A stretch of DNA of 64,000 bases, from positions 478 through 64,477 of the forward strand of contig JACRNP010000012.1 in the NCBI GenBank assembly GCA_016234845.1, given 5' to 3'. Shown one piece after another: positions 6,690-61,894 of the stretch. Under the pieces are notes generated by a model. It saw nothing but the letters and a program-made list of their open reading frames with translations. It had not been told where the DNA came from and did no database searches. The DNA comes from Deltaproteobacteria bacterium (GTDB lineage: Bacteria > Desulfobacterota > Deferrimicrobia > Deferrimicrobiales > Deferrimicrobiaceae). The position numbers and the translations under genes are program-made. The stretch's first letter is position 1; every line of letters starts with the position of its first letter.

Positions 6690-6704
6690 AGGGAACGGAG
6701 CCGG

Positions 6705-8176: not shown

Positions 8177-8179
8177 GGG

Positions 8180-9175: not shown

Positions 9176-9186
9176 GGAGGTTTCCG

Positions 9187-9540: not shown

Positions 9541-9543
9541 CCG

Positions 9544-10548: not shown

Positions 10549-10615
10549 CGCAAGACGCTCCGCCGCACGCCTCCCGCGGTAAAATGTCCGGACTCGTCGC
10601 ATTCGGGAGAGGAAC

Positions 10616-12127: not shown

Positions 12128-12181
12128 CAATCCGGCCCGGTGGATGTAGTAAGGGATGCACGGTACAAGGGGGAGGGTGTT

Positions 12182-13586: not shown

Positions 13587-16500
13587 TTGCCGGCGCGCAA
13601 AAAGAGGCCCGCCCTCGGCGCGGCGTCGCGGCTGCCGCTCGCGGCGGTCCTTTTCGCCGCCGGAATCCTCGTCGCCGTCTCCTGGTCCCCGGCGAGCGCC
13701 GGAGTGTCCGGCACGCTGCACGACTTCTCGAAGGACGGCCCCTACGGGCTTTCCACCCCGATCGCCGCGTCGGGGGCCTGTTCCGGGTGCCACATCCCGC
13801 ACGGCGCCGATCCGAACGCTCCCATCTGGGCGCGAAGCCTGGCGGATTACATATCGGGGCTTACGGTGAACGGAGACACGGCGGGCAAGCCGAACTACGT
13901 TCTCCCTCCCACCCGCGCCTGCTACGACTGCCACGACGACCAGAGCTCCTTCCAGAACAACAAGCCGACGGGCTGGGGATTTTCGGCATCCCACACCCCG
14001 CCCGACATCGCCTTCGGGACCCAGGGACCGAGGGCGGGAAAAACCGGGTATTACGAGAACAACCCGCCGAGCTCCGACACCTACGGTGCGGATCCGTCGC
14101 TGAGGCCGCTTGCCACATGGCCGACCGACAACACGGCTTTGAACAAGACCGGCGGCCACTACTTCAAATGGGGCGATCCGACGGGGAGCACCAACGACAC
14201 GTTCGACATCGGCGACAAGCTTCCGTGCAGCGATTGCCACGACCCGCACTCGGGCTCGGGCTTCCAGGCGTTCATCCGCTCGAACCTCCCAAACAGCGGC
14301 GCGAACCCCGGACTCGGATCTTCCTACTCCTCGGTGACGGCGAGCAGCTTCATGTCGAACAACAGCGGGATCACCCGCAGCAACTCCGAGAGCCGGAAGA
14401 TCTGCGTTGCGTGCCACGGCTACTCGAACAACGGCACCCCGGTCAAATATTACGCGATCAATCCAGCCGCGTACGCCAACAACACCGACAACGTTCCGAG
14501 GCCGCCCCCGTCGGTTTCGGACCACGACAGCTCGGCGACCTCCGTCGCATGCGTATCGTGTCACGACCACAACACGGTCGGCGCCTCCTGCTCGACGTGC
14601 CACGGATACCCCCCGCCCGGGTATCCCGCCGGGAACACCCCTACGGCGTACTCTTCCGGGGCGGACAGCCACGCCCGGCACAGAAACGGCTACGCGTACG
14701 CCTGCGGCGTCTGCCACACCGGAAACGCCCACCAGGACAACAACGTGCAGGTGTCGTTCGATACGACCATCCTCGGAGGGCGGCTCGCCCTGGGGTCTTC
14801 GACGAATCCGTCCCCCCCGAAACGGGTGCCGGCGGGCGGGACCCAATGCTCGAACATCTACTGCCACAGCTCCGGCCGCGACGGGATCACCCCGTCGTCG
14901 AATCCGACCCATTACTCCACGGTCCAGTGGGGCGTGCAGTCCGGGCAGGTGATGTGCGACGGTTGCCACGGAAAATTCACGGTCGGCTCCGGCGGTGATT
15001 TTCTCGCGGACAACACGAGCATGCGGTACGGAGCGCCGAACTACGTCAATTCGGGAGCGCCGGGCTCCGCGACCTCGAACTCCCACAGGGCCCACGTAGG
15101 GACGTACGAATGTTCCGTCTGTCACGGGAGCGCTTTCGGCGATTACAACCCGGTATCCAGGACACGGACGATCTCGAGCGTCGCCAACCACGTGAACGGC
15201 ACCCGCAACATATCGTTCACCGGGCCGGCGTTGGGAGGATCGGTAAACTACGATTCCGCCACGAAGACGTGCACCGTTCCCTCCTGCCACGGCGGAGGCG
15301 CGCCGCAGTGGGGAGGAAGCCTCACGGGCTGCTCCGACTGCCACCTGTCGTCGAGCCCGGACTCCGACGTGTACCTGAACCACTCGGCGAGCAACAACCT
15401 GTACGACGCAAACCAGGCGGGGAACATCAACATCACCGAATGGCAATATTCCGGACACGGGAAGACGACGGGCACGTACGACGTATCAGGCCGCCCCGCC
15501 GCCAACTTCTCGGGGGGAGACCCCTGCTACTTCTGCCACAACCCGTACGCGCTGCACGACAACACCTCCAACCCGTTCCGGTTGAAGGACCAGACCGGGG
15601 CGGCCGCGTACCTTTCCGACAAGGGGTGGAACGCGACGTGCCTGGTGTGCCACTACCATGCCACGGCACCGGTCGGCTACAACCCGTTCGGCGGGGCCGC
15701 CGTGAAGGCGACGGCGGCGTTCACCGACAACAACCATTACGGCGCGGATCATGTCGCCGCGGGGACGAACGGCGGAAAGCTCTGCTGGGACTGCCACGAT
15801 CCGCACGGCGACCGGCCGTCGTCCGGCGTGAACAACATCTACATGATCCAGGGGGGTGGCAGCCGCACCGCTCCTGCCGTCGGACAACTGCTCAGGCAGA
15901 GCGACGGCACCTACGGGTTCCGCGGCACAGCGGGGACATTGACGACCAACGCTCCAGCGTTCATCGCGGCCGCCACGGGGACCGACTACGTGGACAATAC
16001 CGGCGTCAACAGGAACGGGATCTGCCAGGTCTGTCACACGACCGCCTCCCACTGGACCGCGACGAGCGGCGACGGGCACAACGCCGGAGCCCGTTGCACC
16101 CAGTGCCACACGCACGATTCGGGATTCGCCCCGTCCGACTGCAGGGGGTGCCACGGGGGGAACGACGGTTTGACGGGGGCGGCGGGAGCGCCATTCGTCA
16201 CGAGGTACTGGGGGGATTCCGGGACGACGGGGATCAAGAGCGGGCACGGAAGGGCGACCAGCCCCGCGATCGGGTGCGGGGATTGCCACGACGCGACTCT
16301 TCCGGGAGGGAGCACTCACAAGACGAACAACACATCGGGGACGGCGCCTTTCAACATCAACACCGAACATTGGCAGGGCAAGACCCGCACGGCCGATACG
16401 GATCCCAACACGAACACGTCCCACCTGATAGCGGCCTATATCGGTACCGGCACCGACGCGCAGAAGCAGATCGCGTTCGACGACGCATGTTACAGTCGCT

Positions 16501-16889
16501 GCCACCAGGGGAAGGGCATTTCGAATCACCGGCATACGAAACAGTCCCCGCTTTACATGGAGTTCGGAAGGAAGGGGACGACCTCGAACCCGAAGCAGTA
16601 CGTCTGGAACAACAACGGTTCCTGGGACTACAAGAACGAATTCTACAAATCGTGGAGCCCCTGGACCATCCGCGACCTGACGACGGATGCGACCTACCCC
16701 GGATCGATGCCTTCCACGCACTATGGAACCTGCGTCTCCTGCCACGACCCCCATGGAACGGGGATCACGGACAACACCGTCACCAACAGCGGACCGAGCT
16801 CGGGGACGTGGACGAACCACATGGTCCGGGGGAAATGGAAAACGGACACGGCGGCCTTCTGCAACGGCGCCTGCCACAGGAAACCGTAA
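13587..16889 (+). CDS. Giant multihaem c-type cytochrome (1100 aa, about 22 haem-binding motifs, mixed CXXCH and CX3-4CH)
   Basis: The TTG start lies 3 nt after the previous stop. The signal peptide is PARKKRPALGAASRLPLAAVLFAAGILVAVSWSPASA. There are many CXXCH motifs (CSGCH, CYDCH, CSDCH, CVACH, CVSCH, CSTCH, CGVCH, CDGCH, CSVCH, CYFCH, CLVCH, CWDCH, CQVCH, CTQCH, CRGCH, CGDCH ...). Non-canonical motifs include CSNIYCH, CTVPSCH, CYSRCH and CNGACH. Confidence 0.9.
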   Translation: MPARKKRPALGAASRLPLAAVLFAAGILVAVSWSPASAGVSGTLHDFSKDGPYGLSTPIAASGACSGCHIPHGADPNAPIWARSLADYISGLTVNGDTAGKPNYVLPPTRACYDCHDDQSSFQNNKPTGWGFSASHTPPDIAFGTQGPRAGKTGYYENNPPSSDTYGADPSLRPLATWPTDNTALNKTGGHYFKWGDPTGSTNDTFDIGDKLPCSDCHDPHSGSGFQAFIRSNLPNSGANPGLGSSYSSVTASSFMSNNSGITRSNSESRKICVACHGYSNNGTPVKYYAINPAAYANNTDNVPRPPPSVSDHDSSATSVACVSCHDHNTVGASCSTCHGYPPPGYPAGNTPTAYSSGADSHARHRNGYAYACGVCHTGNAHQDNNVQVSFDTTILGGRLALGSSTNPSPPKRVPAGGTQCSNIYCHSSGRDGITPSSNPTHYSTVQWGVQSGQVMCDGCHGKFTVGSGGDFLADNTSMRYGAPNYVNSGAPGSATSNSHRAHVGTYECSVCHGSAFGDYNPVSRTRTISSVANHVNGTRNISFTGPALGGSVNYDSATKTCTVPSCHGGGAPQWGGSLTGCSDCHLSSSPDSDVYLNHSASNNLYDANQAGNINITEWQYSGHGKTTGTYDVSGRPAANFSGGDPCYFCHNPYALHDNTSNPFRLKDQTGAAAYLSDKGWNATCLVCHYHATAPVGYNPFGGAAVKATAAFTDNNHYGADHVAAGTNGGKLCWDCHDPHGDRPSSGVNNIYMIQGGGSRTAPAVGQLLRQSDGTYGFRGTAGTLTTNAPAFIAAATGTDYVDNTGVNRNGICQVCHTTASHWTATSGDGHNAGARCTQCHTHDSGFAPSDCRGCHGGNDGLTGAAGAPFVTRYWGDSGTTGIKSGHGRATSPAIGCGDCHDATLPGGSTHKTNNTSGTAPFNINTEHWQGKTRTADTDPNTNTSHLIAAYIGTGTDAQKQIAFDDACYSRCHQGKGISNHRHTKQSPLYMEFGRKGTTSNPKQYVWNNNGSWDYKNEFYKSWSPWTIRDLTTDATYPGSMPSTHYGTCVSCHDPHGTGITDNTVTNSGPSSGTWTNHMVRGKWKTDTAAFCNGACHRKP

Positions 16890-16896
16890 AGATTCC

Positions 16897-17514
16897 ATGG
16901 GAATGATCCGAAATACGCCTCGGACGGCCGGCACGCCGGTCGCGGTGCTCCTGCTCGTGATCGTTGCCGCTTGCGCGTCCGTGGAGCCTCGCAAGCCCGC
17001 TCCCTCCCTGGAAGGAAGGATCCAGGGACAGCTGATACCGCAGGATAATTCGATCCGGCTCGGCGGCGTGGAAATCCGGGCCGCTGGGAAAACCACGGCT
17101 ACCGATGAGGAAGGGCGGTTCGCCTTCGACACGCTGCCCCAGGGGAAGATCTCGATCGTCGCCGAAAAAAGAGCCGGCCGGGAAGATGCCGGCAGAATGA
17201 TGGGAATCACTGTTGTTTATATCGGGGAAAATCCCGTCCAGTTCAAGGTGCCGTTCAGGGACGCGGCGTTCTTGGACCGGTTCTGCGAGGATTGCCACCC
17301 TTACCGGCCGAAACAACCCATCCGGCAGGGGCAGGTCATACGGGATGTGCATGTTTCGGGGATCGTACCGAATAAGGCGACGAAATGGCCGGAAAGCCTC
17401 GATTCGAAGGGGCGGGTCACCTGTGAAAGTTGCCATACGCTCCACGAGACCACCAAGTTCGGGAAATTCCTGGTCGACCTGAAATCGGGTCCGCTGTGCA
17501 AGAAATGCCACTGA
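16897..17514 (+). CDS. Triheme c-type cytochrome lipoprotein
   Basis: The ATG is 8 nt after the previous stop. The lipoprotein signal is MGMIRNTPRTAGTPVAVLLLVIVAAC. A CarbopepD_reg-like N-terminal domain is followed by CEDCH, CESCH and a C-terminal CKKCH. Confidence 0.75.
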   Translation: MGMIRNTPRTAGTPVAVLLLVIVAACASVEPRKPAPSLEGRIQGQLIPQDNSIRLGGVEIRAAGKTTATDEEGRFAFDTLPQGKISIVAEKRAGREDAGRMMGITVVYIGENPVQFKVPFRDAAFLDRFCEDCHPYRPKQPIRQGQVIRDVHVSGIVPNKATKWPESLDSKGRVTCESCHTLHETTKFGKFLVDLKSGPLCKKCH

Positions 17515-17529
17515 GGATGCTCGGAAAGT

Positions 17530-17548
17530 AACGAATTTTTCGTTTTTC
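17530..17548 (+). terminator. Candidate weak intrinsic terminator or regulatory hairpin between the triheme lipoprotein and the giant cytochrome gene
   Basis: AACGAA-ttt-TTCGTT (a 6-bp stem at 17530-17535 and 17539-17544) is followed by TTTT. It sits in an unusually AT-rich 100-bp spacer that also carries a GTATTCGTATTC direct repeat. The stem is weak, with only 2 GC pairs. Confidence 0.3.
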
Positions 17549-17614
17549 CGTATTCGTATTCATTGGCGGTCGGTTCGCGAGCGGTGGACTGCCCAACGTA
17601 CACGGGAGGGATCG

Positions 17615-24943: not shown

Positions 24944-24967
24944 GACGGGACCCAGGGAGGTTCGAAG

Positions 24968-25231
24968 ATGGACAAGCGTGATCGTTACCGGGCGGCACTT
25001 CTCGTCCCGGTTCTCCTGGCGGCACTTGCCGGACCGGCGTGGGCGGCGACGCCCGGGGCCAAGGCAAGCCACCATCCAGGGCAGGACTGCTCCGGGTGCC
25101 ACAAGATCCGTGGAAAGTCGACGGGGGGGACGCCCGCGAAATCCTCTCCCGCGACGCCTGCCAAGGGGACTGCGCCGGCGGCGACTCCATCCGGCGCTAC
25201 TCCTGCGAAGGGAGCCCCCCAACCTCGATGA
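24968..25231 (+). CDS. Small secreted monoheme c-type cytochrome with a Pro/Ala/Thr/Lys-rich tail (87 aa)
   Basis: The RBS GGGAGG lies before the ATG. The signal peptide is MDKRDRYRAALLVPVLLAALAGPAWA. It has a single CSGCH motif. The tail is TPAKSSPATPAKGTAPAATPSGATPAKGAPQPR. Confidence 0.6.
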   Translation: MDKRDRYRAALLVPVLLAALAGPAWAATPGAKASHHPGQDCSGCHKIRGKSTGGTPAKSSPATPAKGTAPAATPSGATPAKGAPQPR

Positions 25232-26202
25232 TGGGCGGTTGCCACAGCGTTGCCGCCAGGGGAGCGGCCTGGGCACGAGGGATGGCGGCGGCCATCTCCC
25301 TCCGGATCCTGCTGCTGCCGTTCACCGCGGGAGCCGCGGACGTGCGGGTCGTAACCACCGCGGACGGACTTCCGTCGAACTGGGTGACGGCGCTTGCGCC
25401 GGAGCCGGGGGGGAAACTGTGGGTGGGGACCGGAAACGCCGGGGTATACCTGTTCGAGCCGGCCACGGGGAAAGGGAAAGGGTACCGTGTCGCCGACGGG
25501 CTTTCTTCCGACGAGACCACATCCATCGCCCTCTTCCGGGGGAAAGTGTACGTCGGTACCGCCGCCGGACTCTCCGTGTTCGACGGCTCCAAATGGGAGT
25601 CCATCACCAGGATCGAAAACGTGACCTTGCGGAATGTCCGGCTCGCCGCCTCGCCCGGCGGGAAGGAGTTGTGGGCCTGCTCCGTCTACCTCGCCGGGGG
25701 GACGGTCCGTTTCGATGGTACGAACTGGAAATTCATGGGGGGGAAGGGGCGCGGCCTGTTCAACGATATCGAATCCTTCGCGTTTCCGCCGACGGGCGTG
25801 GTGATGGCGGGCGGATCGGGAATCCCTTACCTGTACGCGGGGGACGAAGTGAAGGTCATCGGCGAGGGCCTGCCTCCGATGAGCCTGTTCGCCGTCGCGG
25901 AGAAGGAAGAGGCGCTTCTGCTCGGCTCGAGCCGGGGGATGTACCGATTCGACGGGAATAAGTGGAAAGAGATGCCGCTGCCGCCCGCGCTCGCCGGATC
26001 GTCGGTTTTTTCGATCGCGGTGCAGGGTGGAAGGGTGATTGCCGGCTCCGACAGGGGAATCGTCCTCGTTGTGGATGGATCAGCGCGTTTTTTAAGCCGG
26101 AACGAGGGCCTGCCGGCCGACCGGGTCACCGCGGTCGCAATCCTGGACGGCAGGGTCGCGGCGGGAACCGCCCGGGGACTTGCGTTGATCTCGAACTGGT
26201 GA
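25228..26202 (+). CDS. Secreted beta-propeller protein (two-component-regulator propeller / Reg_prop-like repeats)
   Basis: The ATG at 25228 overlaps the upstream stop; an alternative ATG at 25282 gives the signal MAAAISLRILLLPFTAGAA. Repeats include TTADGLPSNWVTALAPEPGGKLWVGTGNAGVYLFEP and GLSSDETTSIALFRGKVYVGTAAGLSVFDG. Confidence 0.6.
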   Translation: MMGGCHSVAARGAAWARGMAAAISLRILLLPFTAGAADVRVVTTADGLPSNWVTALAPEPGGKLWVGTGNAGVYLFEPATGKGKGYRVADGLSSDETTSIALFRGKVYVGTAAGLSVFDGSKWESITRIENVTLRNVRLAASPGGKELWACSVYLAGGTVRFDGTNWKFMGGKGRGLFNDIESFAFPPTGVVMAGGSGIPYLYAGDEVKVIGEGLPPMSLFAVAEKEEALLLGSSRGMYRFDGNKWKEMPLPPALAGSSVFSIAVQGGRVIAGSDRGIVLVVDGSARFLSRNEGLPADRVTAVAILDGRVAAGTARGLALISNW

Positions 26203-26227
26203 GCGGGAAGAAACAAAGGGTCCGGTT

Positions 26228-29200
26228 ATGCGTAATATCAATAGAAACGGGAAGATGCGTCTTCGGGGGAGGACATTGCTGATGGGCGATCGGGCCAGAT
26301 TCCGACCGGTGCATTTCATCCTGCTCCTGCTTCTGTTCCTGGTTTTCCTTGGCTGGCCGCCGGGAGCGGACGCTGCCCACGATCTTTCCCAGGATTGCTA
26401 TAACTGCCACAACATCCAGACCGGCCAGGTCTGGGCCGGATCGTACTCGATCTGGTCCGGCAAGGCGATCGGCATGTCGCCGTATTCGCGACCCGTCACC
26501 TGCGACATCTGCCACTCCGACTACGGCAACCGGTTCAAGTCGACCAGCGAATCGCACCACCCGGTTCCGACCATCGGAGTCGGCGCGATGGTGAACGATT
26601 ACGACAACGGCGTCCGGATCGATTGCCGGGACTGCCACAACGGGAATTCCGTAACCACCCTGACGCCCAACCTCATCCCCGATCTCGCCCCGACCGACTA
26701 CCTGAGCACGGCGGGGAACACCGCGACGGACGGGTATCCCAACCACGACGTCCTCTTTCCGAACAACCAGGTCGTCCCGGGGGACAACGCGCACCTGCTG
26801 TCGATGCTCCTCTCCGCCGGGCAGCGCACCGTTTCCGGCTCTTCCGTCTACAACAAGGTCCCCTCCGCGAACCCCGCGACCGACTACGCTTTCTGCTTCG
26901 CATGCCACGACGGCAGCGCGAACACCGCCCGCGCGGTCAACGTCCGCCAGGACTACATCGACAAGGGGCACTACTTCAAGTCGACCGGCGGGGGGATCAC
27001 CGCGGGGGACCGGATCCCGTGCTCGGACTGCCACGCGAGCCACAACAGCGCGACCAACGCCCGCCTCTTCGAGCCCGACAACACCACCTGGACGGGTGCC
27101 CGACCTTCCGGCTTGACGTTCGCCTCTCCGTACGCGCCCACCAACGCGGAGTACCGGGCGGTCTGCATCTTCTGCCACGAGGATTACAATTCCACGGATT
27201 CGGTGACCACGACCAAGCGGGTCAGAAACGTCGCTCCCGCCCCGCGGAAGTGGGGGGTCACAGGACACGCGGCGTCCGATACGCAGTCGTGCAAGCAGTG
27301 CCACAATCCGCACAAGACCCCGGGCGGCGGTCCGGACTGCCTCACCTGCCACACCGCCGGCGGCGCGGCGGGGGCCGTCTACGATTACATCGACGCACTG
27401 TTCAAGGGGGTCGGTTCCGACAACACCGCGACCCAACCGGCATCCGTCGGTTCGCTCACCTGGAGCCAGCACGGCGGATTCGTGTCCGCGGGCGGCGCCG
27501 CGCGGTTCATATACACGTCGCCCTACAACACGAAAGCGGTAAACGACTGCTTCAAGTGCCACGGCGACCGCCACAACAACACGTATTCCCTGATCGACGC
27601 GGACGGCGCCGATTCCTACGCGTACAGCGCCTCGCTGGGGATGCGGGACAACACGGCCTCCGGAATCGCCAACGCGAACGCCTTCTGCCTCACGTGCCAC
27701 GACGGGAACGGCGCATCCGCGGACGTCCAGATCGGGAACGTGGCCCCTCCGAACGTCGCGGCGAACTATGCCGGCGGAGGCCACGGCCGTCCCCAGGCGT
27801 CGGGCGCCTACACCGTTTCCCAGAACAACCCGGCGAACCTGAAGTGCACCGACTGCCACGAGGTGCACGGCTCCAACCACGCGAAACTGCTGCCGGCGAA
27901 GAAAAACGAGGTCACGGCGAACTTCACGATCCCCTCTAACTTCCCCGAGAAGACGTTCCGCAGCGGCGGGAGCACATTGCTCGCCCGCGACGTCGACTTC
28001 ACCGACTACTCCAGCCCCGCTTCCGGGAACGGTTTCGGCACGACCGGGGATCCGGGAGACCAGCGCGCTCCCGCCGGGGCGACCACCGGCTTCTGCGACG
28101 CATGCCACCGGTTCGCCGGCCGCGCCAACCGCGGCACCGACAACGTGACGGGCAAGACGCACACCCACGAGGGGATCGTCGGTGATCTCAACCAGTCGTC
28201 GCCGTCCCAGATGACGTTCACGAAGGATTGCCTCGAGTGTCACGACACGCACGGCACGACGAACCTCGAAATGGTCCGCACGACGATCAACGGGGTCACG
28301 CCGGTGACGTTCACCTCGCGCACGGGGGCGAACTCCTTCGACCCGGTCGAGGGCGGCAGCACGGCGAACGCGAACTCGGTGTGCACCGCGTGCCACCAGA
28401 ATCCGACCGAGAACCCCGCCCTCAACGTGGACCACAACTTCCGCAGCTCCACCGTGAACCCGGACCACAACGAGGACACGAACTGCACGGCGTGCCACCC
28501 CCACGGGACCGCCGCCGACGCGAAGAAGTTCGGCTTCCCGCAGGCGGCGTGCAACTCGTGCCACGGGACGGTTTCCGACACCGCGGGGATGCCCGCATCC
28601 GGGGACACCGGGACGTACCACACCGACGCCAACAACGTGATCGGCACCCGGGCCGGGGACAACACGGCCCACAAGATCCACGTGAACTACCTGGTGAACA
28701 AGCGCGGCGTGGCGCGGAGCTCCTCCTGCTACGTCTGCCACGCCGGGGGCGGTTCCGGCGAGTCGGGCGGACACCCGGGGAACCCCACGAACAAGAATTT
28801 CAAGAGCGGCACGCAACCTTCCGCGGTTCCGTACCTCCAGGTCGCGCTCGACAACACGGGCGCGGTCTGGAACACATGGAACGGCGCCGGGTCGGGCCCG
28901 ACGTACAGCGGCACCCCCGGCCAGGCGGCGGACAATACGAACGGCTGGAAGACGTGCTCCAACACGAAGTGCCATTACGCCCTGTCGCCGTCCTGGTCCG
29001 GAAAACAGCAGATCACGGCCCTGCCGGGCGTGATGACCGTGTCGACTCCCGACGCGCTCCCCGCCGCTGGAAACGTCCTCCAGGGTTCTACCAACAACGT
29101 GATCGACAAGATCCGCCTCCAGACCGATGCCTCGGGTACGGTCATCGACAACCAGTTCAAGGTGCGCATGGGCGTCGGGGCGACGGCGGTGTACGGGACC

Positions 29201-30505
29201 GACATCGCCCGGATCACCTTCTGGGAAGACGCGGACCTGAGCGGAACCGTGAACGGGGGTGACATCCAGATCGGCGGAGACGCGGTTTTCTCGGGGACCG
29301 ACAACGGCTACACGGTTGCGCCGGTCTCCTACTCCGTACCCGCGAGCACCACGAAACAGGTGCTGGTCGTGGTCGACATCGGCGCGGCCGCGGTCAACGG
29401 ACGCACCATGGCGTTCTCCACGGTAAACGGCGAGCTCAAGGCGTCGTACGGCACGATCAACGCGTGGACGACGTTCACCTCGAACACTTTCACCGTCGCC
29501 GCGCCGGGCACCCTCACCGTATCCACGCCCGACGCCTTACCGGCGGCCGGCCCCGTGATGGTGGGTTCTGGGAACAACGTGGTGGACAAGATCAACCTCG
29601 TTGCGAGCGGCGGGTTCTCGACCGTCACGGGCCTCAAGGTGAAGCAGCTGGGCACTGCGGTGAACTCGACCGACATCTCGGCCGTCACCTTCTGGCGGGA
29701 CGTGAACTCGAACGGGACGCTGGAAACCGGCACCGATACGCTTCTCGGAGGCGCGGCCACCTTCAGCGGGGCGGATAATACTTACTCGGTGTCTGGGTTG
29801 TCGCTGACGGTTTCTTCCGGGGCGACGGAGCGGATTCTCGTGGTCGACAACGTGGCGGCGGGAGCCACCACCACGCGGACGATCCAGACCCAGGTGGTCG
29901 ACGCCTCCTACGTGACCCTGTCCGCGGGGACGGTGGCGGGGACCTTCCCGATTACGGCGTCCACGGTACAGACGATCAGCAGCGGAGGGCAGCTCACGGT
30001 GACCACGCCCGACGCGCTTCCCGCGGCCGGGGACATCCGCGGCGCCTCGGACAACAACGTGGTGGACAGGATCACCCTCACCGCGGCTACGGCGAACGTG
30101 ACGGTGAGCGGACTCTGGGTGAAGGAGCTGGGTACCTCGGCGGACGGATCCGACATCTCCGCCGTGTCCTTCGTGGACAACACCGCCGGAGCGGGCACCC
30201 TGCTGGGCACGGCGACGTTCAACGCCGCCGACAACACCTACCGCCTGACGGGGCTGGGTCTCACCGTGGTGGTCGGGACGCCCCGGACGATCGTCGTGAT
30301 GGCGAACATCGCGAACGGAGCAACCGCGGCGAGGACCGTGCAGACCCAGGTGAACGACGGGTACGTCCAGGTTTCGACGGGAACGGTAAACGCCATCACC
30401 TCGTTCAGCTCGACGATCCAGACGATCCGGGCGCTCACCGGCAGACGATCCGGGCGCTCACCGGTCTGGTTATCACGGACACCGCGGGTTCGACGACGCC
30501 GGTGA
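26228..30505 (+). CDS. Giant multihaem c-type cytochrome, N-terminal part (1425 aa, about 18 haem motifs, then three tandem Ig-like repeats); the frame is broken near the 3' end by a 23-bp tandem duplication
   Basis: The signal peptide is MRLRGRTLLMGDRARFRPVHFILLLLLFLVFLGWPPGADA. Haem motifs include CYNCH, CDICH, CRDCH, CFACH, CSDCH, CIFCH, CKQCH, CLTCH, CFKCH, CTDCH, CDACH, CLECH, CTACH, CNSCH, CYVCH and CSNTKCH. Three roughly 160-aa repeats occupy aa 930-1400. The last 20 aa (RRSGRSPVWLSRTPRVRRRR) are out-of-frame translation after the duplication at 30419..30464. Confidence 0.8.
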   Translation: MRNINRNGKMRLRGRTLLMGDRARFRPVHFILLLLLFLVFLGWPPGADAAHDLSQDCYNCHNIQTGQVWAGSYSIWSGKAIGMSPYSRPVTCDICHSDYGNRFKSTSESHHPVPTIGVGAMVNDYDNGVRIDCRDCHNGNSVTTLTPNLIPDLAPTDYLSTAGNTATDGYPNHDVLFPNNQVVPGDNAHLLSMLLSAGQRTVSGSSVYNKVPSANPATDYAFCFACHDGSANTARAVNVRQDYIDKGHYFKSTGGGITAGDRIPCSDCHASHNSATNARLFEPDNTTWTGARPSGLTFASPYAPTNAEYRAVCIFCHEDYNSTDSVTTTKRVRNVAPAPRKWGVTGHAASDTQSCKQCHNPHKTPGGGPDCLTCHTAGGAAGAVYDYIDALFKGVGSDNTATQPASVGSLTWSQHGGFVSAGGAARFIYTSPYNTKAVNDCFKCHGDRHNNTYSLIDADGADSYAYSASLGMRDNTASGIANANAFCLTCHDGNGASADVQIGNVAPPNVAANYAGGGHGRPQASGAYTVSQNNPANLKCTDCHEVHGSNHAKLLPAKKNEVTANFTIPSNFPEKTFRSGGSTLLARDVDFTDYSSPASGNGFGTTGDPGDQRAPAGATTGFCDACHRFAGRANRGTDNVTGKTHTHEGIVGDLNQSSPSQMTFTKDCLECHDTHGTTNLEMVRTTINGVTPVTFTSRTGANSFDPVEGGSTANANSVCTACHQNPTENPALNVDHNFRSSTVNPDHNEDTNCTACHPHGTAADAKKFGFPQAACNSCHGTVSDTAGMPASGDTGTYHTDANNVIGTRAGDNTAHKIHVNYLVNKRGVARSSSCYVCHAGGGSGESGGHPGNPTNKNFKSGTQPSAVPYLQVALDNTGAVWNTWNGAGSGPTYSGTPGQAADNTNGWKTCSNTKCHYALSPSWSGKQQITALPGVMTVSTPDALPAAGNVLQGSTNNVIDKIRLQTDASGTVIDNQFKVRMGVGATAVYGTDIARITFWEDADLSGTVNGGDIQIGGDAVFSGTDNGYTVAPVSYSVPASTTKQVLVVVDIGAAAVNGRTMAFSTVNGELKASYGTINAWTTFTSNTFTVAAPGTLTVSTPDALPAAGPVMVGSGNNVVDKINLVASGGFSTVTGLKVKQLGTAVNSTDISAVTFWRDVNSNGTLETGTDTLLGGAATFSGADNTYSVSGLSLTVSSGATERILVVDNVAAGATTTRTIQTQVVDASYVTLSAGTVAGTFPITASTVQTISSGGQLTVTTPDALPAAGDIRGASDNNVVDRITLTAATANVTVSGLWVKELGTSADGSDISAVSFVDNTAGAGTLLGTATFNAADNTYRLTGLGLTVVVGTPRTIVVMANIANGATAARTVQTQVNDGYVQVSTGTVNAITSFSSTIQTIRALTGRRSGRSPVWLSRTPRVRRRR
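29020..30440 (+). repeat. Three tandem coding repeats of about 480 bp (about 160 aa each) encoding Ig-like/beta-sandwich modules inside the giant cytochrome
   Basis: The protein repeats begin LTVSTPDALPAAG[NPD]V..G[SA].NNV[IV]D[KR]I.L and end ...TFW.D...GT...G.D...GG.A.FSG.DN.Y.V..L.L.V. The DNA copies start near 29027, 29503 and 29989. My by-eye estimate of DNA identity is about 70%. Confidence 0.7.
30419..30464 (+). repeat. Perfect 23-bp tandem duplication (CAGACGATCCGGGCGCTCACCGG x2) that frameshifts the giant cytochrome gene
   Basis: Copy 1 is 30419-30441 and copy 2 is 30442-30464, and the two are identical. Because 23 = 3x7+2, the upstream frame hits a stop at 30503-30505. Removing one copy joins ...IQTIRALTG directly to LVITDTAGSTTPVTTTSLSASGTHQFY..., which is the frame of ORF 30502..35829. 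Confidence 0.85.
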
Positions 30506-33500
30506 CGACGACGAGCCTGAGCGCGAGCGGTACGCACCAGTTCTACTCCACCGCGACGTATTCGAGCGCCGCGTTGAACCAGAACGTGACCACCGGTTCC
30601 GCCTGGTCGCGCGCCGGCACCGCGACGGGGAGCACCGTCGGCGCCGCGACCGGCTTCTACACCGCGGGATCGACGGCGGGGACCGACAACGTGACGGCCA
30701 CCTACCGGGGGCAAACCGATAACACCACGGTGGACGTGACCACCGCCGCCGCGCGCACGTATTTCCTGTTCAGGCCGGGTGTCCAGACGAGCGTAGGCGC
30801 GGACGGCCAGATGCACAACGGTTGGACGAGCGCGACCACGTTTTCCCCGGCGCCCGGGAATACGGGAATGGCGACCTCGGCCTATTCGCCGACGCCAAAC
30901 GGGTGGAACACGGCCGTCAACCTGAGGATCAATTCGACGGGAACCACGACGTACCTTCTGATGCGTGCGTATACGATGGCGAACTACGCATCCGCCAACA
31001 CGATTCCGGCGCAGACCGTGAGCGGGCAGATCGGCCTTCGGAACGGGACCGGAAACGCGACCGCGTACCTGGCCCTCTACGATTACAATCCCGCCGGCGC
31101 CGCCGGGAACGGAACGCAGATCGGAGGCAATTCCGGAACGTTGAGCGTCACGGCAACCCAAACCAACTTCACTTGGTCGATCACGATCCCGTCCTCCTAC
31201 GTGATTCCGGTCGGCCATCGGCTCCAGCTCCGGCTCTATTACACCGCGTCCGTCTCCGCGCAGAGCAACCGCGCATACATAGGGTCCACCACGGTCGGAA
31301 CGAACAGCGGTTCGTTCACGATCACGGAGACCTCCACCGAAAACCTCGCTCCGCCCCGCACCACCGGCGGCGGCACCGCCATCGCCTGCAACACCTGCCA
31401 CCAGTTCGGGCCGGATGACGCGACGGCGGGATACAAGGACAGCAGCCAGTACTACTACGCCCTCCCCGGTTCGCACGCCAAGCACGGCGTTTCCCTGACC
31501 GCGGGGACCGATCCTGTGGCGGACAACGCGATCGACACCTGCACGATCTGCCACCTGGCCGGGACCGGCGCGTTCGGCTCGGACCACATGGACGGAACCG
31601 TCGATCTGCGTTCCGGGTCGATCGGCACACGGACCGCCGGTCCGGCGTACGCCGACGACGGGACGTACGCCGGCGCCTCCCGGACCTGCTCGAATGTGTA
31701 TTGCCACGCGGGACGTTCGACTCCGCAGGCCACCGGCCAATCGTGGGGATACGGAACGTCCACGTGCGGGGTCTGCCACGCGGTGACGCCCCCCTTCGGA
31801 AAGCACGCGCTCCACAACAACGGGAACGTGAACACTACGCCGTCGGACACCTCCACGGCGGGGAATTACAACTTCTCGTGCTACTACTGCCACCCCTCCG
31901 GCGCGGAGCATGTGAATTACCCGGTATCCGCGGTACAGGCGGCGCAGGTCTCCTTCTCCGGGACGCTCGGAGCGCAGACCCTGAGCGGCACCTATACCGC
32001 CGGCGGCACGACGGCCGGCTGGGACAACGTGGCGAGCCAGGGGCTCTCCTGGACGAACGGTTCCTGCGCCGTTTACTGCCACACGAACGGCCAGGGCGGG
32101 GCCGCCCTGGTCACTCCGACATGGAACCATTCGGGGTTCCCGACCGCGACGTGCGTCGGGTGCCACGACACGAGAGGCGCTGCGACGTCGCTGTCGACCC
32201 GCCACCGGAAGCACACAGACGACACCGCGACCACGGGGTACAACTTCTCCTGCGACGAATGCCACGCGACGACGGTGGCAAACGATTCGTGGACGACGTT
32301 ACACGCGACGACGGGCCGCCCCAACCACGTGGACGGCAACCCGACGGTGCAGTTCAGCACGACGCTTCGGGCGACAACGCTCGCCATTTCCGGGACGTTT
32401 ACACAGGGAGTCGACAGCTGCGCGAACACGTACTGCCACAGCGACGGGTCGAGCATCAAGAACGGCGGAACGATCCAGGCGAACTCGATCCGGTGGGACA
32501 ACACCACGACCCCGCTTCCGTGCAACTCGTGCCACGGCGCCGGCGGTCCGGTCTCCGGAGCCCCGAACTACACGACGTCCGGCAGCCGCAGGAACAGCCA
32601 TGCGGCGCACGCGTCGGTGACGTGCCAGACGTGCCACAGCCAGACGACGACGACCGGAAACACGATCACGACCGCGGCCAACCACGTGAACGGTACGTAC
32701 CAGGTGAACGGAACGGGATTCACGTACGCCTTCAACGCCACGACCGGATCCACGTGCGCCTTCACGTCGGGCTGCCACAGCGGCACGGTGACGTGGGGGA
32801 CGCCGCTGACCGGCGGATGCTTCGCCTGCCACACCGGCGCGGAAGTCGCGAACAAGCCGCTGGAGGCCGTGGACGGCGTGCCGAACCCCGTGGACAACAC
32901 ACAGTACAACGGCAACGGCCACGGGAACTCGACCGCCTTCACCTGGGACAGCATCGCCGGCCCGGCGTTCCTCTACAGCTATACCGGTACCCCGAACAGC
33001 GGCTGCTACGAGTGCCACAGCAGCGCGGCGAGCCATGTTCCGAAGAGCGCGGCGGACCCGTACCGGCTGGGCGCGTGGGCTTCGAACGTCGACGGCCTCT
33101 GCAACGACTGCCACGGTCCGTCGGCGACGAATCCGAACAAGGCGTTGAGCGCGCCGAACCTCGGAATCCTCGGTCACAACAAGGTGAACACGGGGTCGGC
33201 CAGGACGTGGCCGGGATCGTATGACTACAAGTGCGTCGATTGCCACGATCCTCACGGCGACGGCAACTACTTCATGGTTCGATCCGCCGTGAACAACCCG
33301 GTAAACTCCACCGACACGAACGCGGGGAGCAATTCCTTCGGCACGCCGAAAGACAACGCTCTCTCGAACGTCACGTTCACGAGCCTCGCCGGCTTCGCGG
33401 CGAACAGCTACGCCGTTTCAGGGACGGCGGACGGTATCTGCGAGGTGTGCCACAACCAGACCACCCTTTTCAACGCCAGCGGCTCCGACAACACCGGCAC

Positions 33501-35829
33501 CCACGCGTCCCGCACCGGCCGCTGCACCTCCTGCCACAAGCACGATACCGGCTTCAAGGGATCGGGAGATTGCGAGGCGTGCCACAACAACGCCCAGGGG
33601 CCGAGGCGCGCGATCACGGCGGAATTCGGATACGCGTCGCACCACAGCCAGGGCGTCACGGCGGCCACGGTGACCAAGGTCACCTGCTCCCAGTGTCACA
33701 TGGAAGCGAACGCGGACGGCTCGATGAGCACGACGTACCACAACAACGGCGCCTCTTCGCCGTACCCGATCGACCTGGTCGTGTACACGACATACCCTAC
33801 GCGCGGAACGCCGGTGTCGATCACGAATCTTGCGCAGGCGGACCTTGCGCCCGCCAGCGCGCATTGCCAGTCGTGCCACAACGCGACGAACCAGGCCGCC
33901 GCGCCGTTCAGCGGGGAGGGCGACACACGCACACCGAGGGTGTATGCATGGGACGCCACGCCGGTGGGTACGAAGTACGGGGCGACGACTACCGCTCCGT
34001 TCGGGAAGGTGTCTTCCACGACATACAATGTGGTTCCGGCTGACCTGATCAACAAGGCGTACTCTCCACACGGCAATCTCGCGAACAACCACGGAGGGTA
34101 CGCCACCAGCGGGGCATGGACGGACCGTTACGCGGCGACCAGCGGGACGGCGGCGCGAACCGCGGTTACGAACGTGGCGTGCCTGGACTGCCACAATTCG
34201 CACGGGTCGGGAGTGACCGGGGGTACCTCGTACGTCAGCCCGGCGTCGAGCTACACCGCGGCGACTTCCGCCCCCGGAAACGGCGGGATACTCAAGGACA
34301 CCGCGGCGTACACCCCCGCCGCGAGCACGACCGCGGGAAACCTGTACAGCGCGCAGGCGGATCTCTGCTTCGACTGTCACCTGGGGGATGACGCCACCGC
34401 CCCGAGGAAATTCACGAGCTACCGCTCGCCCGCGCCGACACAGCCTGTGCAAGGGTACTACGACGCCAACGGTCTCACCGGGGCGACGCGCTGGGGAACC
34501 TCGCAGATTTGGACCGGCAGCTTCGCCTACAAATCCGCGGTGTTCAAGGGAGGCCACTTCGGGGCGAGCACGACCACGGCGAGCGGCACTTCCGCGCTCA
34601 TGAAATCCACTCCCGCGGGGACGATCCTTGGCCTTTGCACGAAGTGCCACGATCCGCACGGGGTGGACCCTGCCGCGGCGAACGCGGCGTACCGGGTCCC
34701 GGCGCTGAAAGGGACGTGGATGACCTCCCCGTACAAGGAGGATCGGGCGGGGGATCTGGTCGGTGCGACCATTAACGACGCGAACACATGGTCCCCCTCG
34801 AACTCGTCGCGGTTTACGGGCACGCCCAAGCCGTACAGCGCGCCGCGGCAGAATCCGAGCTTCGCCTACAATCAGCCCGCCATCGTGGGCGGCGGATTCG
34901 GAACAGGGATCAGTGCTTCCACGTGGGGGAAGGGAGGAACGGGGTACAACGGATACTTCATCGACGACAACTCCTTCGGGAACAGCAAGATCAACGACAC
35001 GACGTACCGCCCGTGGTCGACGGCGATCACCGGGACGTACGTGACCGCCGCGGTTCCCGGGCTGAACGACACCCAGTTCGCGGGGCTGTGCCTGAGCTGC
35101 CACCCGAAGACGGGAACGCTCGCCGCAGGGAGCATCGGGAGCGTACTGACCTCGACGAACGGCCCATACACGTACGACTACTCGGGCCGCGGTAACAATA
35201 CTGCCTATACTAAAACGGTGACCGGCATCAACGACACGATCACGGTCCACCGCACGGTTCTCGGGTGGGACACGATCGCCACCGCGGCGAACCTGTTCAA
35301 ATACTACATGACCCGCCAGCACGCGATGGTCTGGAACGGGGGCGGCGGGCAGGCCGTCCGGTCGATCAGCAGCTATACGACCGCTCCGGGAGCGTACCGC
35401 TGGTCGGTGAATCCCGGGACCACGACGCACGCTGCCAATTGGAACCCGTACACCGATACCGCCTACGACACCGGGAACTACACCCTGGCGGCGGGAGGCC
35501 AGCAGTCGGCCAATTACACCGACAACACGTACCACCGGTTCGTCTGCTCGAAATGCCACACGCCACATGTGGCGCGGCTTCCGCGGTTGATGAAGACGAA
35601 CTGTCTCGATGTGGGGCCCAGCGCGACGCAGGCAACCTCGATCAACAAGCACGGAAGCACTTCCACGGCGTACACCGGCACGGGGTACACTTTCGGGGCG
35701 CAGATCGCCGATACGGACTCGGCCGGATTCAGCTACATGCCGAACGAGCGCCCGATGCACTGCCACAACCAGAAAAAGTCGAACAAGACGGGCGCCGGAG
35801 GGTGGAACACGGTCACGGGGTGGCCGTAA
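30502..35829 (+). CDS. Giant multihaem c-type cytochrome, C-terminal part (1775 aa, about 26 haem motifs); it has no signal peptide of its own and is probably the downstream part of a single roughly 3190-aa protein interrupted by the 23-bp duplication
   Basis: The GTG 'start' is followed by VTTTSLSASGTHQFYSTATYSS, a Thr/Ser-rich stretch that is not a signal peptide. A 280-aa non-haem Ser/Thr/Gly-rich region comes first. Then come CNTCH, CTICH, CSNVYCH, CGVCH, CYYCH, CAVYCH, CVGCH, CDECH, CANTYCH, CNSCH, CQTCH, CAFTSGCH, CFACH, CYECH, CNDCH, CVDCH, CEVCH, CTSCH, CEACH, CSQCH, CQSCH, CLDCH, CFDCH, CTKCH, CLSCH and CSKCH. Confidence 0.8.
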   Translation: MTTTSLSASGTHQFYSTATYSSAALNQNVTTGSAWSRAGTATGSTVGAATGFYTAGSTAGTDNVTATYRGQTDNTTVDVTTAAARTYFLFRPGVQTSVGADGQMHNGWTSATTFSPAPGNTGMATSAYSPTPNGWNTAVNLRINSTGTTTYLLMRAYTMANYASANTIPAQTVSGQIGLRNGTGNATAYLALYDYNPAGAAGNGTQIGGNSGTLSVTATQTNFTWSITIPSSYVIPVGHRLQLRLYYTASVSAQSNRAYIGSTTVGTNSGSFTITETSTENLAPPRTTGGGTAIACNTCHQFGPDDATAGYKDSSQYYYALPGSHAKHGVSLTAGTDPVADNAIDTCTICHLAGTGAFGSDHMDGTVDLRSGSIGTRTAGPAYADDGTYAGASRTCSNVYCHAGRSTPQATGQSWGYGTSTCGVCHAVTPPFGKHALHNNGNVNTTPSDTSTAGNYNFSCYYCHPSGAEHVNYPVSAVQAAQVSFSGTLGAQTLSGTYTAGGTTAGWDNVASQGLSWTNGSCAVYCHTNGQGGAALVTPTWNHSGFPTATCVGCHDTRGAATSLSTRHRKHTDDTATTGYNFSCDECHATTVANDSWTTLHATTGRPNHVDGNPTVQFSTTLRATTLAISGTFTQGVDSCANTYCHSDGSSIKNGGTIQANSIRWDNTTTPLPCNSCHGAGGPVSGAPNYTTSGSRRNSHAAHASVTCQTCHSQTTTTGNTITTAANHVNGTYQVNGTGFTYAFNATTGSTCAFTSGCHSGTVTWGTPLTGGCFACHTGAEVANKPLEAVDGVPNPVDNTQYNGNGHGNSTAFTWDSIAGPAFLYSYTGTPNSGCYECHSSAASHVPKSAADPYRLGAWASNVDGLCNDCHGPSATNPNKALSAPNLGILGHNKVNTGSARTWPGSYDYKCVDCHDPHGDGNYFMVRSAVNNPVNSTDTNAGSNSFGTPKDNALSNVTFTSLAGFAANSYAVSGTADGICEVCHNQTTLFNASGSDNTGTHASRTGRCTSCHKHDTGFKGSGDCEACHNNAQGPRRAITAEFGYASHHSQGVTAATVTKVTCSQCHMEANADGSMSTTYHNNGASSPYPIDLVVYTTYPTRGTPVSITNLAQADLAPASAHCQSCHNATNQAAAPFSGEGDTRTPRVYAWDATPVGTKYGATTTAPFGKVSSTTYNVVPADLINKAYSPHGNLANNHGGYATSGAWTDRYAATSGTAARTAVTNVACLDCHNSHGSGVTGGTSYVSPASSYTAATSAPGNGGILKDTAAYTPAASTTAGNLYSAQADLCFDCHLGDDATAPRKFTSYRSPAPTQPVQGYYDANGLTGATRWGTSQIWTGSFAYKSAVFKGGHFGASTTTASGTSALMKSTPAGTILGLCTKCHDPHGVDPAAANAAYRVPALKGTWMTSPYKEDRAGDLVGATINDANTWSPSNSSRFTGTPKPYSAPRQNPSFAYNQPAIVGGGFGTGISASTWGKGGTGYNGYFIDDNSFGNSKINDTTYRPWSTAITGTYVTAAVPGLNDTQFAGLCLSCHPKTGTLAAGSIGSVLTSTNGPYTYDYSGRGNNTAYTKTVTGINDTITVHRTVLGWDTIATAANLFKYYMTRQHAMVWNGGGGQAVRSISSYTTAPGAYRWSVNPGTTTHAANWNPYTDTAYDTGNYTLAAGGQQSANYTDNTYHRFVCSKCHTPHVARLPRLMKTNCLDVGPSATQATSINKHGSTSTAYTGTGYTFGAQIADTDSAGFSYMPNERPMHCHNQKKSNKTGAGGWNTVTGWP

Positions 35830-47625: not shown

Positions 47626-47633
47626 CTTATCGG

Positions 47634-48215: not shown

Positions 48216-48230
48216 GGACTTCGAATCCGG

Positions 48231-50301: not shown

Positions 50302-50302
50302 C

Positions 50303-51211: not shown

Positions 51212-51255
51212 GTTACACGGGATTCTCCTTTCGCGCCATCCACCTTGGCGTAGCG

Positions 51256-52453: not shown

Positions 52454-52512
52454 TCCAGCGGTTTTTTTTACGTTTCCCGGAGGGCGGGTGCGCTTAGGGG
52501 CTCGATGACGCG

Positions 52513-56061: not shown

Positions 56062-56233
56062 TGGCGGGATCGACAGGGAATATGAGGGAATGCTTCTTGC
56101 TGTTTCACCCCGGAACGGATGCGCCCACCCCGGGGTGCGCGATTTGACGCAGCGGACGAGGGAAATTACCTACAGGCGGGTAACGATCCGGGTGCTGAAG
56201 GGGAGGGGAGGCCGGCTTGCTCCGGGATTGCTG

Positions 56234-61887: not shown

Positions 61888-61894
61888 GATCGGA

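Follow-up and report, generated by a model that had tools for sequence, protein, structure and literature searches.

The CxxxxCH/CxxCH domain type (PF09698, GSu_C4xC__C2xCH; TIGR01904) was first defined on proteins of Geobacter sulfurreducens. The subject of this report is a gene cluster encoding giant multihaem cytochromes with domains of this type, located at positions 13587-35829 (the interval) of a 64,000-nt stretch of contig JACRNP010000012.1 that was analysed as a whole (the window). The three giants, designated B, D and FG, are almost certainly exported multihaem c-type cytochromes of the CxxxxCH/CxxCH family. Large Geobacter proteins of this family have been predicted to be single-chain 'nanowires' (PMC11492766). 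A relative from Geobacter with 27 haems is predicted to be 350 Angstrom long, which compares with a width of ~170 Angstrom for the periplasm, and giant 'nanowire-like' members have been described computationally in the Desulfuromonadia, a record of 113 motifs being cited (PMC11492766). The cytochromes of the window resemble these proteins in being secreted, very haem-rich and uncharacterised, whereas D (55 haems) and FG (44 haems) hold about twice the 27 haems of the modelled relative, belong to another phylum-level lineage and are encoded in a fixed multi-gene operon headed by a gene for an extracytoplasmic function (ECF) sigma factor. The repeating unit also differs, being a tri-haem module of ~125 residues in place of the two-motif domain of 36-73 residues that the hidden Markov models (HMMs) of the family describe.

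The tri-haem repeat invites comparison with GSU1996 (PDB 3OV0), a linear 12-haem wire built of four tri-haem c7-type domains, each with one His-Met haem, which is discussed as a 'nanowire' or capacitor of the periplasm (PMC10138318). Both it and the cytochromes described here carry tri-haem domains arrayed in tandem along a single chain, and PF14522 (Cytochrome_C7; cut-off 24.8 bits) was above its cut-off in B (55.2 bits), D (132.6 bits) and both open reading frames (ORFs) into which FG is split in the window, F (42.4 bits) and G (56.5 bits). However, the module has ~125 residues compared with ~80, its first site, a CX4CH, has a beta-strand lead-in outside the part alignable to c7, each module has three distal His and no Met, and the chains carry 22-55 haems compared with 12. 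The model TIGR04257 (nanowire_3heme) was matched only by G, at 22 bits against a cut-off of 40. Since the TIGR04257 score is below cut-off, the module is longer, the first site is CX4CH and the His-Met haem is lacking, the cytochromes are not members of the GSU1996 family proper.

Proposed long-range transport along stacked bis-His haems outside the cell is also a point of likeness to the OmcS, OmcE and OmcZ filaments and their archaeal counterparts. Length is achieved in those filaments by polymerising subunits of 4-8 haems, whereas here a single, very long polypeptide would provide it. The list of 60 PDB matches to the module profile includes no chain with the label OmcS, OmcE or OmcZ, and phmmer with D returned none. 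The combination of a lipoprotein cytochrome (C) with secreted multihaem cytochromes in one operon is shared with MtrCAB of Shewanella and with the Pcc/Ext systems of Geobacter, but no gene for a beta-barrel outer-membrane protein was found in or beside the operon. Scores with TIGR03508, the model for an MtrA/DmsE-type decahaem partner, were 28.3 bits for F and 43.3 bits for G compared with a cut-off of 192.2.

Giant cytochromes have also been noted in genomes of MBNT15, which encode 13-55 multihaem cytochromes each with up to 43 CxxCH per protein, and iron reduction has been proposed as a hallmark of this phylum, MBNT15/Candidatus (Ca.) Deferrimicrobiota (PMC9386147). Supplementary Table 5 of the same paper gives at most 16 haems for the cytochromes of strain SHF-111 (PMC9386147). 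The window probably derives from the same lineage, and D has exactly 43 CXXCH motifs, matching the reported maximum. That survey counted CxxCH only, and the giants, the operon, the non-canonical sites and the module structure lay outside its analysis. Already known are the domain family, curated in Pfam and NCBIfam, its giant members (PMC11492766) and the giant cytochromes of MBNT15 (PMC9386147); new are the resolved conserved operon, the tri-haem module together with its set of ligands, the revised haem counts and an account of why the gene is split. The CxxxxCH/CxxCH giants are abundant in metal-reducing and subsurface bacteria, and in this locus five cytochromes are encoded in one clean, conserved operon whose regulator is defined. 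The set of orthologues could guide the expression of single modules for structural and redox work, making the locus a useful structural and biochemical target, albeit one that would not surprise a specialist.

Haem attachment sites and the tri-haem module

Regular expressions applied to the translated ORFs identified 125 haem attachment motifs in the interval, comprising 104 CXXCH, 13 CX4CH, 6 CX3CH and 2 CX5CH. The motifs are distributed as 22 in B, 3 in the lipoprotein C, 55 in D, 1 in a small monohaem protein and 44 in F and G combined. The total agrees with the approximately 120 motifs in 22 kb announced in an earlier note on this DNA and is far beyond chance, as composition-preserving shuffles contained a mean of 0.34 CXXCH and 1.2 CX3-5CH and the three reverse frames contained 0 CXXCH and 1 CX3-5CH. 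All Cys of B (44/44) and D (110/110) lie inside motifs, as do 88 of the 90 in FG after repair of its frameshift. The non-canonical sites number 21 of 125 (17%), which shows that the wording of the earlier note, in which the proteins were 'built from' non-canonical modules, was too strong; the CX4CH sites nonetheless mark a real repeat. The pairing of a CX4CH with a following CXXCH, also described there, was recovered with a spacing of 26-38 residues (start to start) for 11 of the 13 CX4CH sites, the remaining two being one with a spacing of 20 and one that borders the haem-free insert of FG. Counting CXXCH alone understates the haem content (43 CXXCH compared with 55 sites in D), which affects surveys such as that of MBNT15.

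The conservation of the sites was evaluated in orthologues. Of the 64 relatives of D at E <= 1e-10, eight are full-length orthologues (2403-2465 aa; 48-57% identity to D). In all eight, 54 of the 55 sites were present (12/12 non-canonical and 42/43 canonical), and the non-canonical sites had the same loop length almost always. Every site of B was retained in three orthologues at ~38% identity, the one seeming loss being an alignment shift, and all 44 sites of FG were retained in three orthologues at 60-85% identity. Between orthologues the loop length drifts among CX3, CX4, CX5 and CX6 (also between CX3 and CX2) while both Cys and the His are fixed, the pattern to be expected of a tolerated haem-binding loop. 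The pattern of conservation suggests that the CX3-5CH sites are under selection as predicted haem attachment sites. Neither unconserved CX4CH sites nor ORFs without export signals and homologues, either of which the earlier note had considered fatal to its finding, were encountered; the sites are kept in the orthologues and hydrophobic N-termini are present. The positions at which loop length drifts are residues 562 and 968 of B, 1939 and 2169 of FG, and 343 of D.

The eight orthologues of D also share 56 invariant His residues outside the motifs for 55 haems, together with only 10 invariant Met residues, none of which occupies a recurring position in the module. The presence of one invariant distal His per haem and the lack of a recurring Met fit bis-His ligation throughout, and argue against catalytic haems with open coordination.

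Seven tri-haem modules of ~125 aa are contained in D. The module begins with a beta-strand lead-in and G-x-C-[ST]-N-x-Y-C-H, followed after ~25 residues by P-x-W and C-G-x-C-H. In the second half, H-x-x-H follows ~20 residues after C-G-x-C-H and precedes C-x-x-C-H by ~10 residues, and a further H-x-N-G comes last. An alignment of 47 modules, taken from B, D, FG and their orthologues, revealed invariant columns in the order C, C, H, W, C, C, H, H, H, C, H; each module has three haem attachment sites and three distal His with no conserved Met. Much of each giant cytochrome is a chain of these ~125-residue modules.

The domain type named in the earlier note, PF09698/TIGR01904, was recovered with both models above cut-off in B, D and G. 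The scores with PF09698 were 27.7, 53.1 and 38.7 bits respectively (cut-off 21.7), and those with TIGR01904 were 47.2, 107.9 and 70.6 bits (cut-off 27), the match in D extending over six stretches. The ORF F alone matched neither PF09698 nor TIGR01904. Scores above the gathering cut-off were also obtained with PF14537 for D, F and G and with PF09699 for F and G, and the homologues carry the database name 'CxxxxCH/CxxCH domain-containing protein'. Relatives at 24-30% identity are present in Geobacter, Geomonas, Geotalea, Desulfuromonas, Anaeromyxobacter and Nitrospirota. The best match of the module profile in the PDB was 3OV0 (GSU1996) with E = 3e-6, consisting of repeated matches that cover haem sites two and three together with the HxxH.

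Gene organisation and the split gene FG

The G+C content of the window is 60-70% (65% for the genome) and spurious long ORFs are abundant. Third-position G+C (GC3) values of 0.83-0.88 single out one frame per position in the interval, and all of the resulting genes are on the + strand. Table 1 lists the features of the locus. The sizes of 1100, 2442 and ~3190 aa (the last split) reported in the earlier note for the giants are as measured. The trihaem lipoprotein and the monohaem protein mentioned with them are also present, the former with a lipobox. The start of C at 16897 was also called in a Logan assembly, and the protein contains a CarboxypepD_reg/transthyretin-like beta domain that is weak, being below the Pfam cut-off. 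The monohaem ORF has no GC3 bias; it is conserved in three of the related loci, for which the labels L### are used here (P#### for proteins), at identities of 82% (L083), 49% (L001) and 100% (L002), while L081 and L082 have no room for it. One N-terminal hydrophobic segment is present in each of A, B, C, D, the monohaem protein, the beta-propeller protein encoded ahead of FG, F, and the protein H encoded downstream, and none is present in G.

The ECF sigma and anti-sigma genes placed directly upstream by the same note were confirmed with Pfam, TIGR02937 and zf-HC2 matches. The sigma factor has sigma-70 regions 2 and 4 only and the membrane anti-sigma factor with zf-HC2 is encoded next to it. 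The Pfam scores of the anti-sigma factor were 28 bits for zf-HC2, 43 bits for AMPK1_CBM and 31 bits for CBM_48. Searches of Pfam and NCBIfam with protein A, encoded between the anti-sigma factor and B, returned no match. A scan of the window with Rfam returned nothing, and promoter and terminator scans from 5 to 45 kb were uninformative with counts at or below shuffle expectation.

The gene order is common to at least seven related metagenomic loci (L001, L003, L081, L082, L083, L085 and L057), with amino-acid identities across the syntenic loci from ~35% to 94%. The order sigma, anti-sigma, A, B, C, D, propeller and FG-like gene recurs in L081 and L082. The upstream part of the order, through B, is present in L085, which matches the gene order of the window over 17 kb. 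A B-like gene, C, D, the propeller and FG are kept in L001 and L083, with H next in L083, and parts of the block are kept in L003, L057, L059 and L006. The closest relative is L083 (GCA_003598145.1), in which D and FG are 94% and 85% identical to those of the window. The sigma factor occupies the same position in L081, L082, L085 and L057 with 68-81% identity; in these four loci the anti-sigma factor is conserved beside it and protein A is conserved with 64-78% identity. Homologues of C are present in eight loci and the propeller is at the same position in nine. L083, L057, L006 and L059 each encode H on the downstream side of the FG-like gene and L031 encodes it close to a D-like cytochrome, while the gene pair at 38296-42170 is syntenic only in L083. 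The L085 locus is annotated as Ca. Deferrimicrobiaceae, a family within Ca. Deferrimicrobiota (the former MBNT15). Extra giants were also observed within related operons, namely a 1657-aa cytochrome with a second propeller in L082 (17164-24093) and a 2893-aa cytochrome in L001 (519-9200), and the unit appears to grow by duplicating cytochrome-propeller pairs.

The largest protein was described in the earlier note as split in two. Two ORFs are indeed present in the window, but they belong to one gene that is broken by an exact tandem duplication of a 23-bp unit, such that the last ~14 codons of F are out of frame and Arg-rich. Deletion of one 23-bp copy in silico produced a single ORF of 3192 aa with 44 sites. 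The near-identical locus L002, an independent Logan assembly (SRR12113393) that covers the window from 15782, has a single copy and the gene reads through; it differs from the window by 9 mismatches in 14,660 positions before the junction and 0 in 789 after it. The FG orthologues P0065 (85% identity, 3166 aa), P0066 (2990 aa) and P0067 (3106 aa) are also single ORFs. The single copy in L002 and the single-ORF orthologues establish that FG is natively one gene, and for annotation F and G are to be read as one gene of 3192 aa. An exact-sequence look-up of the truncated F product returned no record, which fits a frameshift private to this assembly. The duplication is either a strain-level lesion or variant, or an artefact of joining during assembly.

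The haem-free insert of FG comprises ~800 residues (916-1715), with Thr, Ala, Gly, Val and Ser prominent in its composition. Three 160-aa repeats come first, then a Big_2-like segment recognised by eye with no Pfam match, and finally a beta-rich domain. The repeats open with (L/M)TV(S/T)TPDALPAAG and extend over residues 937-1410 of FG (29036-30457 in the window). The insert had no Pfam match at E <= 5 and no PDB match by sequence or with a 12-row profile, and the Ig-like repeats that the earlier note placed inside the cytochromes were not verified; the confirmed Big_1 repeats are in H, outside the interval. An exhaustive HMMER search with the 160-aa domain identified 675 cluster representatives, 62 of them at E <= 1e-30. 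Up to 26 matched stretches were present in proteins of >5000 aa and most carriers had no other Pfam domain; the sequences suggest that the repeat, which looks like an unannotated domain, is one of giant secreted proteins. The beta-rich domain (30465-31370 in the window, residues 1410-1712 of FG) is not conserved in comparison with P0065, P0066 and P0067. A precomputed MAM-domain match (PF00629) in P0067 is apparently at the position of the beta-rich domain, and more distant paralogues contain fn3 or Pur_ac_phosph_N. The haem-free insert looks like a swappable cassette.

Table 1. Features of the cytochrome locus and its immediate neighbours, with positions in the window.
Feature	Position	Strand	Remarks
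GeoRSP trio (PqqD, rSAM/SPASM, SPASM-only)	9196-11521	+	33 nt upstream of the sigma gene
ECF-type sigma-70 factor, 190 aa	11555-12127	+	Sigma70_r2 71 bits, Sigma70_r4_2 59 bits; TIGR02937 (sigma70-ECF) 108.7 bits, cut-off 42.9
Anti-sigma factor	12140-12985	+	zf-HC2 at the N-terminus; single membrane span at residues 100-118; CBM48/AMPK1_CBM-like beta-sandwich at the C-terminus, outside the membrane
Protein A, 200 aa	12982-13584	+	Signal peptide; overlaps the anti-sigma stop codon; stops 2 nt before B
Cytochrome B, 1100 aa	13587-16889	+	Signal peptide; 22 haem sites (18 CXXCH, 2 CX3CH, 2 CX4CH)
Lipoprotein C, 205 aa	16897-17514	+	3 CXXCH; lipobox LLLVIVAAC at the corrected start 16897
Cytochrome D, 2442 aa	17615-24943	+	Signal peptide; 55 haem sites (43 CXXCH, 3 CX3CH, 8 CX4CH, 1 CX5CH)
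Small monohaem protein, 87 aa	24968-25231	+	Probable gene; signal peptide, CSGCH, Pro/Ala/Lys-rich tail
Secreted beta-propeller (Reg_prop-type), ~306 aa	25282-26202	+	Start uncertain, 25096 to 25282; Pfam Reg_prop 22.5 bits; signal-like N-terminus
F, N-terminal part of cytochrome FG, 1425-aa ORF	26228-30505	+	18 haem sites between the signal peptide and three 160-aa haem-free repeats
Exact tandem duplication of the 23-bp unit CAGACGATCCGGGCGCTCACCGG	30419-30441 and 30442-30464		Frameshifts FG
G, C-terminal part of cytochrome FG	30465-35829	+	1775-aa ORF 30502-35829; haem-free segments, then 26 haem sites; no signal peptide
H, secreted protein, 768 aa	35899-38205	+	Big_1/invasin-type Ig-like repeats; Big_1 98 bits, Invasin_D3 84 bits
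Spermine-synthase-like protein with TPR, then CarboxypepD_reg and LVIVD protein	38296-42170	+	By Pfam; membership in the cytochrome unit uncertain

Proposed electron transfer function and competing readings

On balance, the results favour an operon of Sec-exported giant cytochromes, headed by an ECF sigma factor, that serve as electron wires or stores, probably for extracellular electron transfer. By analogy and from the sequence features, a function in electron conduction or storage is likely, while a specifically extracellular location is put forward tentatively and with some doubt. The conduit reading, called 'nanowire-like' in the earlier note, follows from the haem density, the one conserved distal His per haem and the remote homology of the module to GSU1996. 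All haems would be low-spin bis-His and packed in continuous chains, and each polypeptide would be a long single-molecule electron wire or store outside the cytoplasm. Each chain would measure tens of nanometres when extrapolated from the 350 Angstrom model of the 27-haem Geobacter protein, with D roughly twice that length. Expression of the operon, which probably serves extracellular electron transfer such as the reduction of Fe(III), would be turned on by way of the ECF sigma pair. Within the system, C would be the membrane anchor, and FG and H would orient their beta-rich domains towards the cell surface. The domain types Big_1, LVIVD and CarboxypepD_reg are typical of surface proteins. The extracellular version is weakly favoured because the predicted length exceeds the periplasm and because of these surface-type domains and the repeat stalk of FG.

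Several results weigh against this interpretation. No outer-membrane beta-barrel or porin was found in any ORF of the window by family searches, protein A and the ORFs at 45925-47658 and 56012-58006 not being structurally tested. Neither a quinol-oxidising inner-membrane subunit nor secretion genes were found in the window. Given that no beta-barrel and no quinol oxidase were found, the locus is not a self-contained conduit. The earlier description of an electron-conduit locus with its own regulation stands as regards regulation, the ECF pair being found in the same conserved order in L081, L082, L085 and L057, and not as regards self-sufficiency, with the function being predicted. The [ST]-P-[ST] motifs proposed as 'haematite-binding' are sparse (0.14-0.23 per 100 aa), and FG, the largest gene, is disrupted in this window. 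A phmmer search of the PDB with D returned no chain at E <= 0.01. AlphaFold2 models were unusable both for D 560-1710 with 22 sequences (mean predicted local distance difference test score, pLDDT, of 33) and for a two-module slice, D 606-858, with 33 paired-module rows (pLDDT 46, predicted template modelling score 0.33). The wire geometry, haem packing and module fold are predicted from sequence. Finally, the uncultured host of the locus, which probably reduces iron, is most probably a member of Ca. Deferrimicrobiota, as judged by synteny and the names of related metagenome-assembled genomes, not by marker genes. Protein H was considered as the missing outer-membrane porin, in the form of an inverse autotransporter, and rejected; its N-terminal 494 aa gave only a weak extra Big_1 match and appear by eye to be a soluble lectin-type domain.

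The same gaps at the locus bear on an alternative in which the giants are a periplasmic electron store, or capacitor, that buffers electrons when acceptors are scarce, as proposed for GSU1996, GSU0592 and GSU2210. This alternative is considered unlikely, although it accounts for the absence of any detected porin, type II secretion genes or sorting signal at the locus and for the fact that the closest solved relative of the module, GSU1996, is described as a periplasmic 'nanowire' or capacitor (PMC10138318); it is also consistent with the 125 redox centres that the proteins hold in total. Unless folded back, however, a 55-haem chain would be several times the width of the periplasm, based on 350 Angstrom for 27 haems compared with ~170 Angstrom (PMC11492766). 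The 800-aa repeat insert of FG and the Big_1, LVIVD and CarboxypepD_reg proteins in the operon also count against a periplasmic store, and neither argument is decisive.

A bolder form of the electron-wire reading can be formulated as a porin-independent system, in which monomers of 55 and 44 haems, each >50 nm long, would be projected from the surface by C, the 160-aa stalk of FG and H, controlled by a cell-surface-signalling ECF pair with its CBM48-like sensor, and with the adjacent GeoRSP genes possibly acting in maturation. This form is considered improbable; if true, it would constitute a third route to long-range extracellular electron transfer beside porin-cytochrome complexes and OmcS-type filaments.

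Participation of GeoRSP is itself the core of a further proposal, considered highly improbable, that the trio is a dedicated maturation system for the cytochromes or protein A and that the 35-kb block is one functional unit. The trio encodes PqqD, a radical S-adenosylmethionine (rSAM) protein with SPASM and a SPASM-only protein on the same strand as the sigma gene and 33 nt from it. The trio adjoins the sigma gene in the window and in L081, L082 and L085, with the SPASM gene overlapping the sigma gene in L085, while L057 keeps PqqD and the SPASM-only gene with no clear rSAM gene. Homologues of the rSAM protein occur mainly in metal- and electrode-reducing Desulfuromonadia. The rSAM protein scored 412.5 with TIGR04303, above the cut-off of 400, whereas the scores of the PqqD and SPASM-only partners with TIGR04302 and TIGR04304 were 49.5 and 102.3, in each case the best match but below the NCBIfam cut-offs of 100 and 300, and no candidate precursor peptide was identified. 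Moreover, the block is found in Desulfuromonas versatilis (L084) in the order NosD, PhnD-like, Sulf_transp, PqqD, rSAM and SPASM, followed by an aminotransferase and housekeeping genes, with no ECF sigma factor, protein A or giant cytochrome within 10 kb. No GeoRSP trio was found within 10 kb of ~70 more distant cytochrome loci, and adjacency in one clade only may be plain synteny. GeoRSP is best treated as a module adjacent to the cytochrome unit and separate from it. A role for GeoRSP as a general cytochrome partner was also considered and is ruled out by the D. versatilis block, which stands alone, and by the ~70 distant loci lacking the trio. A literature search by the name 'GeoRSP' returned nothing relevant. 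One GeoRSP rSAM protein, P0083, is 84% identical to that of the window and carries the NCBI label 'Candidatus Methanoperedens sp.'; the bacterial origin of its nearest relatives points to a mis-binned contig.

The probability is very slight that the giants are catalytic enzymes, acting as reductases or oxidases of soluble nitrogen, sulfur or metal species. Multihaem modules are reused in enzymes, and the module profile gave weak matches (E = 2e-4 to 0.03) to NrfA and other catalytic multihaem proteins. However, the NrfA matches extend only over generic haem-packing segments, no CXXCK or long-loop catalytic motifs and no catalytic domain by Pfam or NCBIfam were found, and the invariant distal His for each haem is opposed to such a role. 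An array of frame artefacts or pseudogenes, that is of unexpressed high-GC frames, to which the 65% G+C, the many spurious long ORFs and the one frameshifted gene might point, is refuted by the motif statistics, the strand asymmetry, the GC3 of 0.83-0.88, the full-length orthologues with conserved sites, the HMM matches above curated cut-offs and the absence of the frameshift from L002.

Upstream and downstream genes of the window

The genes from 1 to 11521 encode, in order, a ResB-like/beta-helix protein, DUF362, a NosD/beta-helix protein, a PhnD-like binding protein, a YeeE/Sulf_transp-like membrane protein and an ArsP-type permease, followed by PqqD, rSAM/SPASM and the SPASM-only protein. 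The Sulf_transp family was taken from the orthologues in L081 and L085, the ORF of the window being read by eye, and the full order recurs in L085. The ORF at 1-1647 consists of a 38-residue ResB-like stretch fused to a beta-helix, with no NCBIfam match. A function of this gene as a cytochrome c maturation factor was considered and rejected on the basis of the short stretch, the lack of an NCBIfam match and its conservation with the NosD/GeoRSP block. The locus had been credited with its own maturation factors, which is not supported, as the ResB-like gene belongs to the GeoRSP block that D. versatilis keeps without the cytochromes or the ECF sigma factor. Genes corresponding to the 'ResB variant and thioredoxins' reported at the edges of the window do exist, but the first is the 38-residue stretch in a beta-helix protein and the thioredoxins are in another cluster 25 kb downstream, past an opposite-strand block. 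They comprise a thioredoxin-fold gene at 61090-61887 and a redoxin-decahaem fusion at 61880-63436. A signal peptide, a redoxin domain of the ResA/TlpA-like kind and 10 CXXCH (Paired_CXXCH, with weak similarity to the GSU2203/DmsE-like decahaem type) are present in the fusion protein of ~518 aa, whose gene comes directly after the thioredoxin-fold gene; NHL-repeat and SurA-like genes are located nearby.

The minus-strand cluster at 42179-51268 encodes a TMEM260-like O-mannosyltransferase with TPR, a B12-binding radical-SAM protein, a 577-aa protein without a family, a nitroreductase-methyltransferase fusion, a methyltransferase and a GT2 glycosyltransferase, and may be a glycosylation or modification cluster. 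The first two genes of this cluster are syntenic in L083. The product of the ORF at 52498-56061 (1187 aa) combines a peptidase domain of the M6 (immune inhibitor A-like) type with Reg_prop propeller repeats; the next gene encodes a 664-aa protein without a family (56012-58006).

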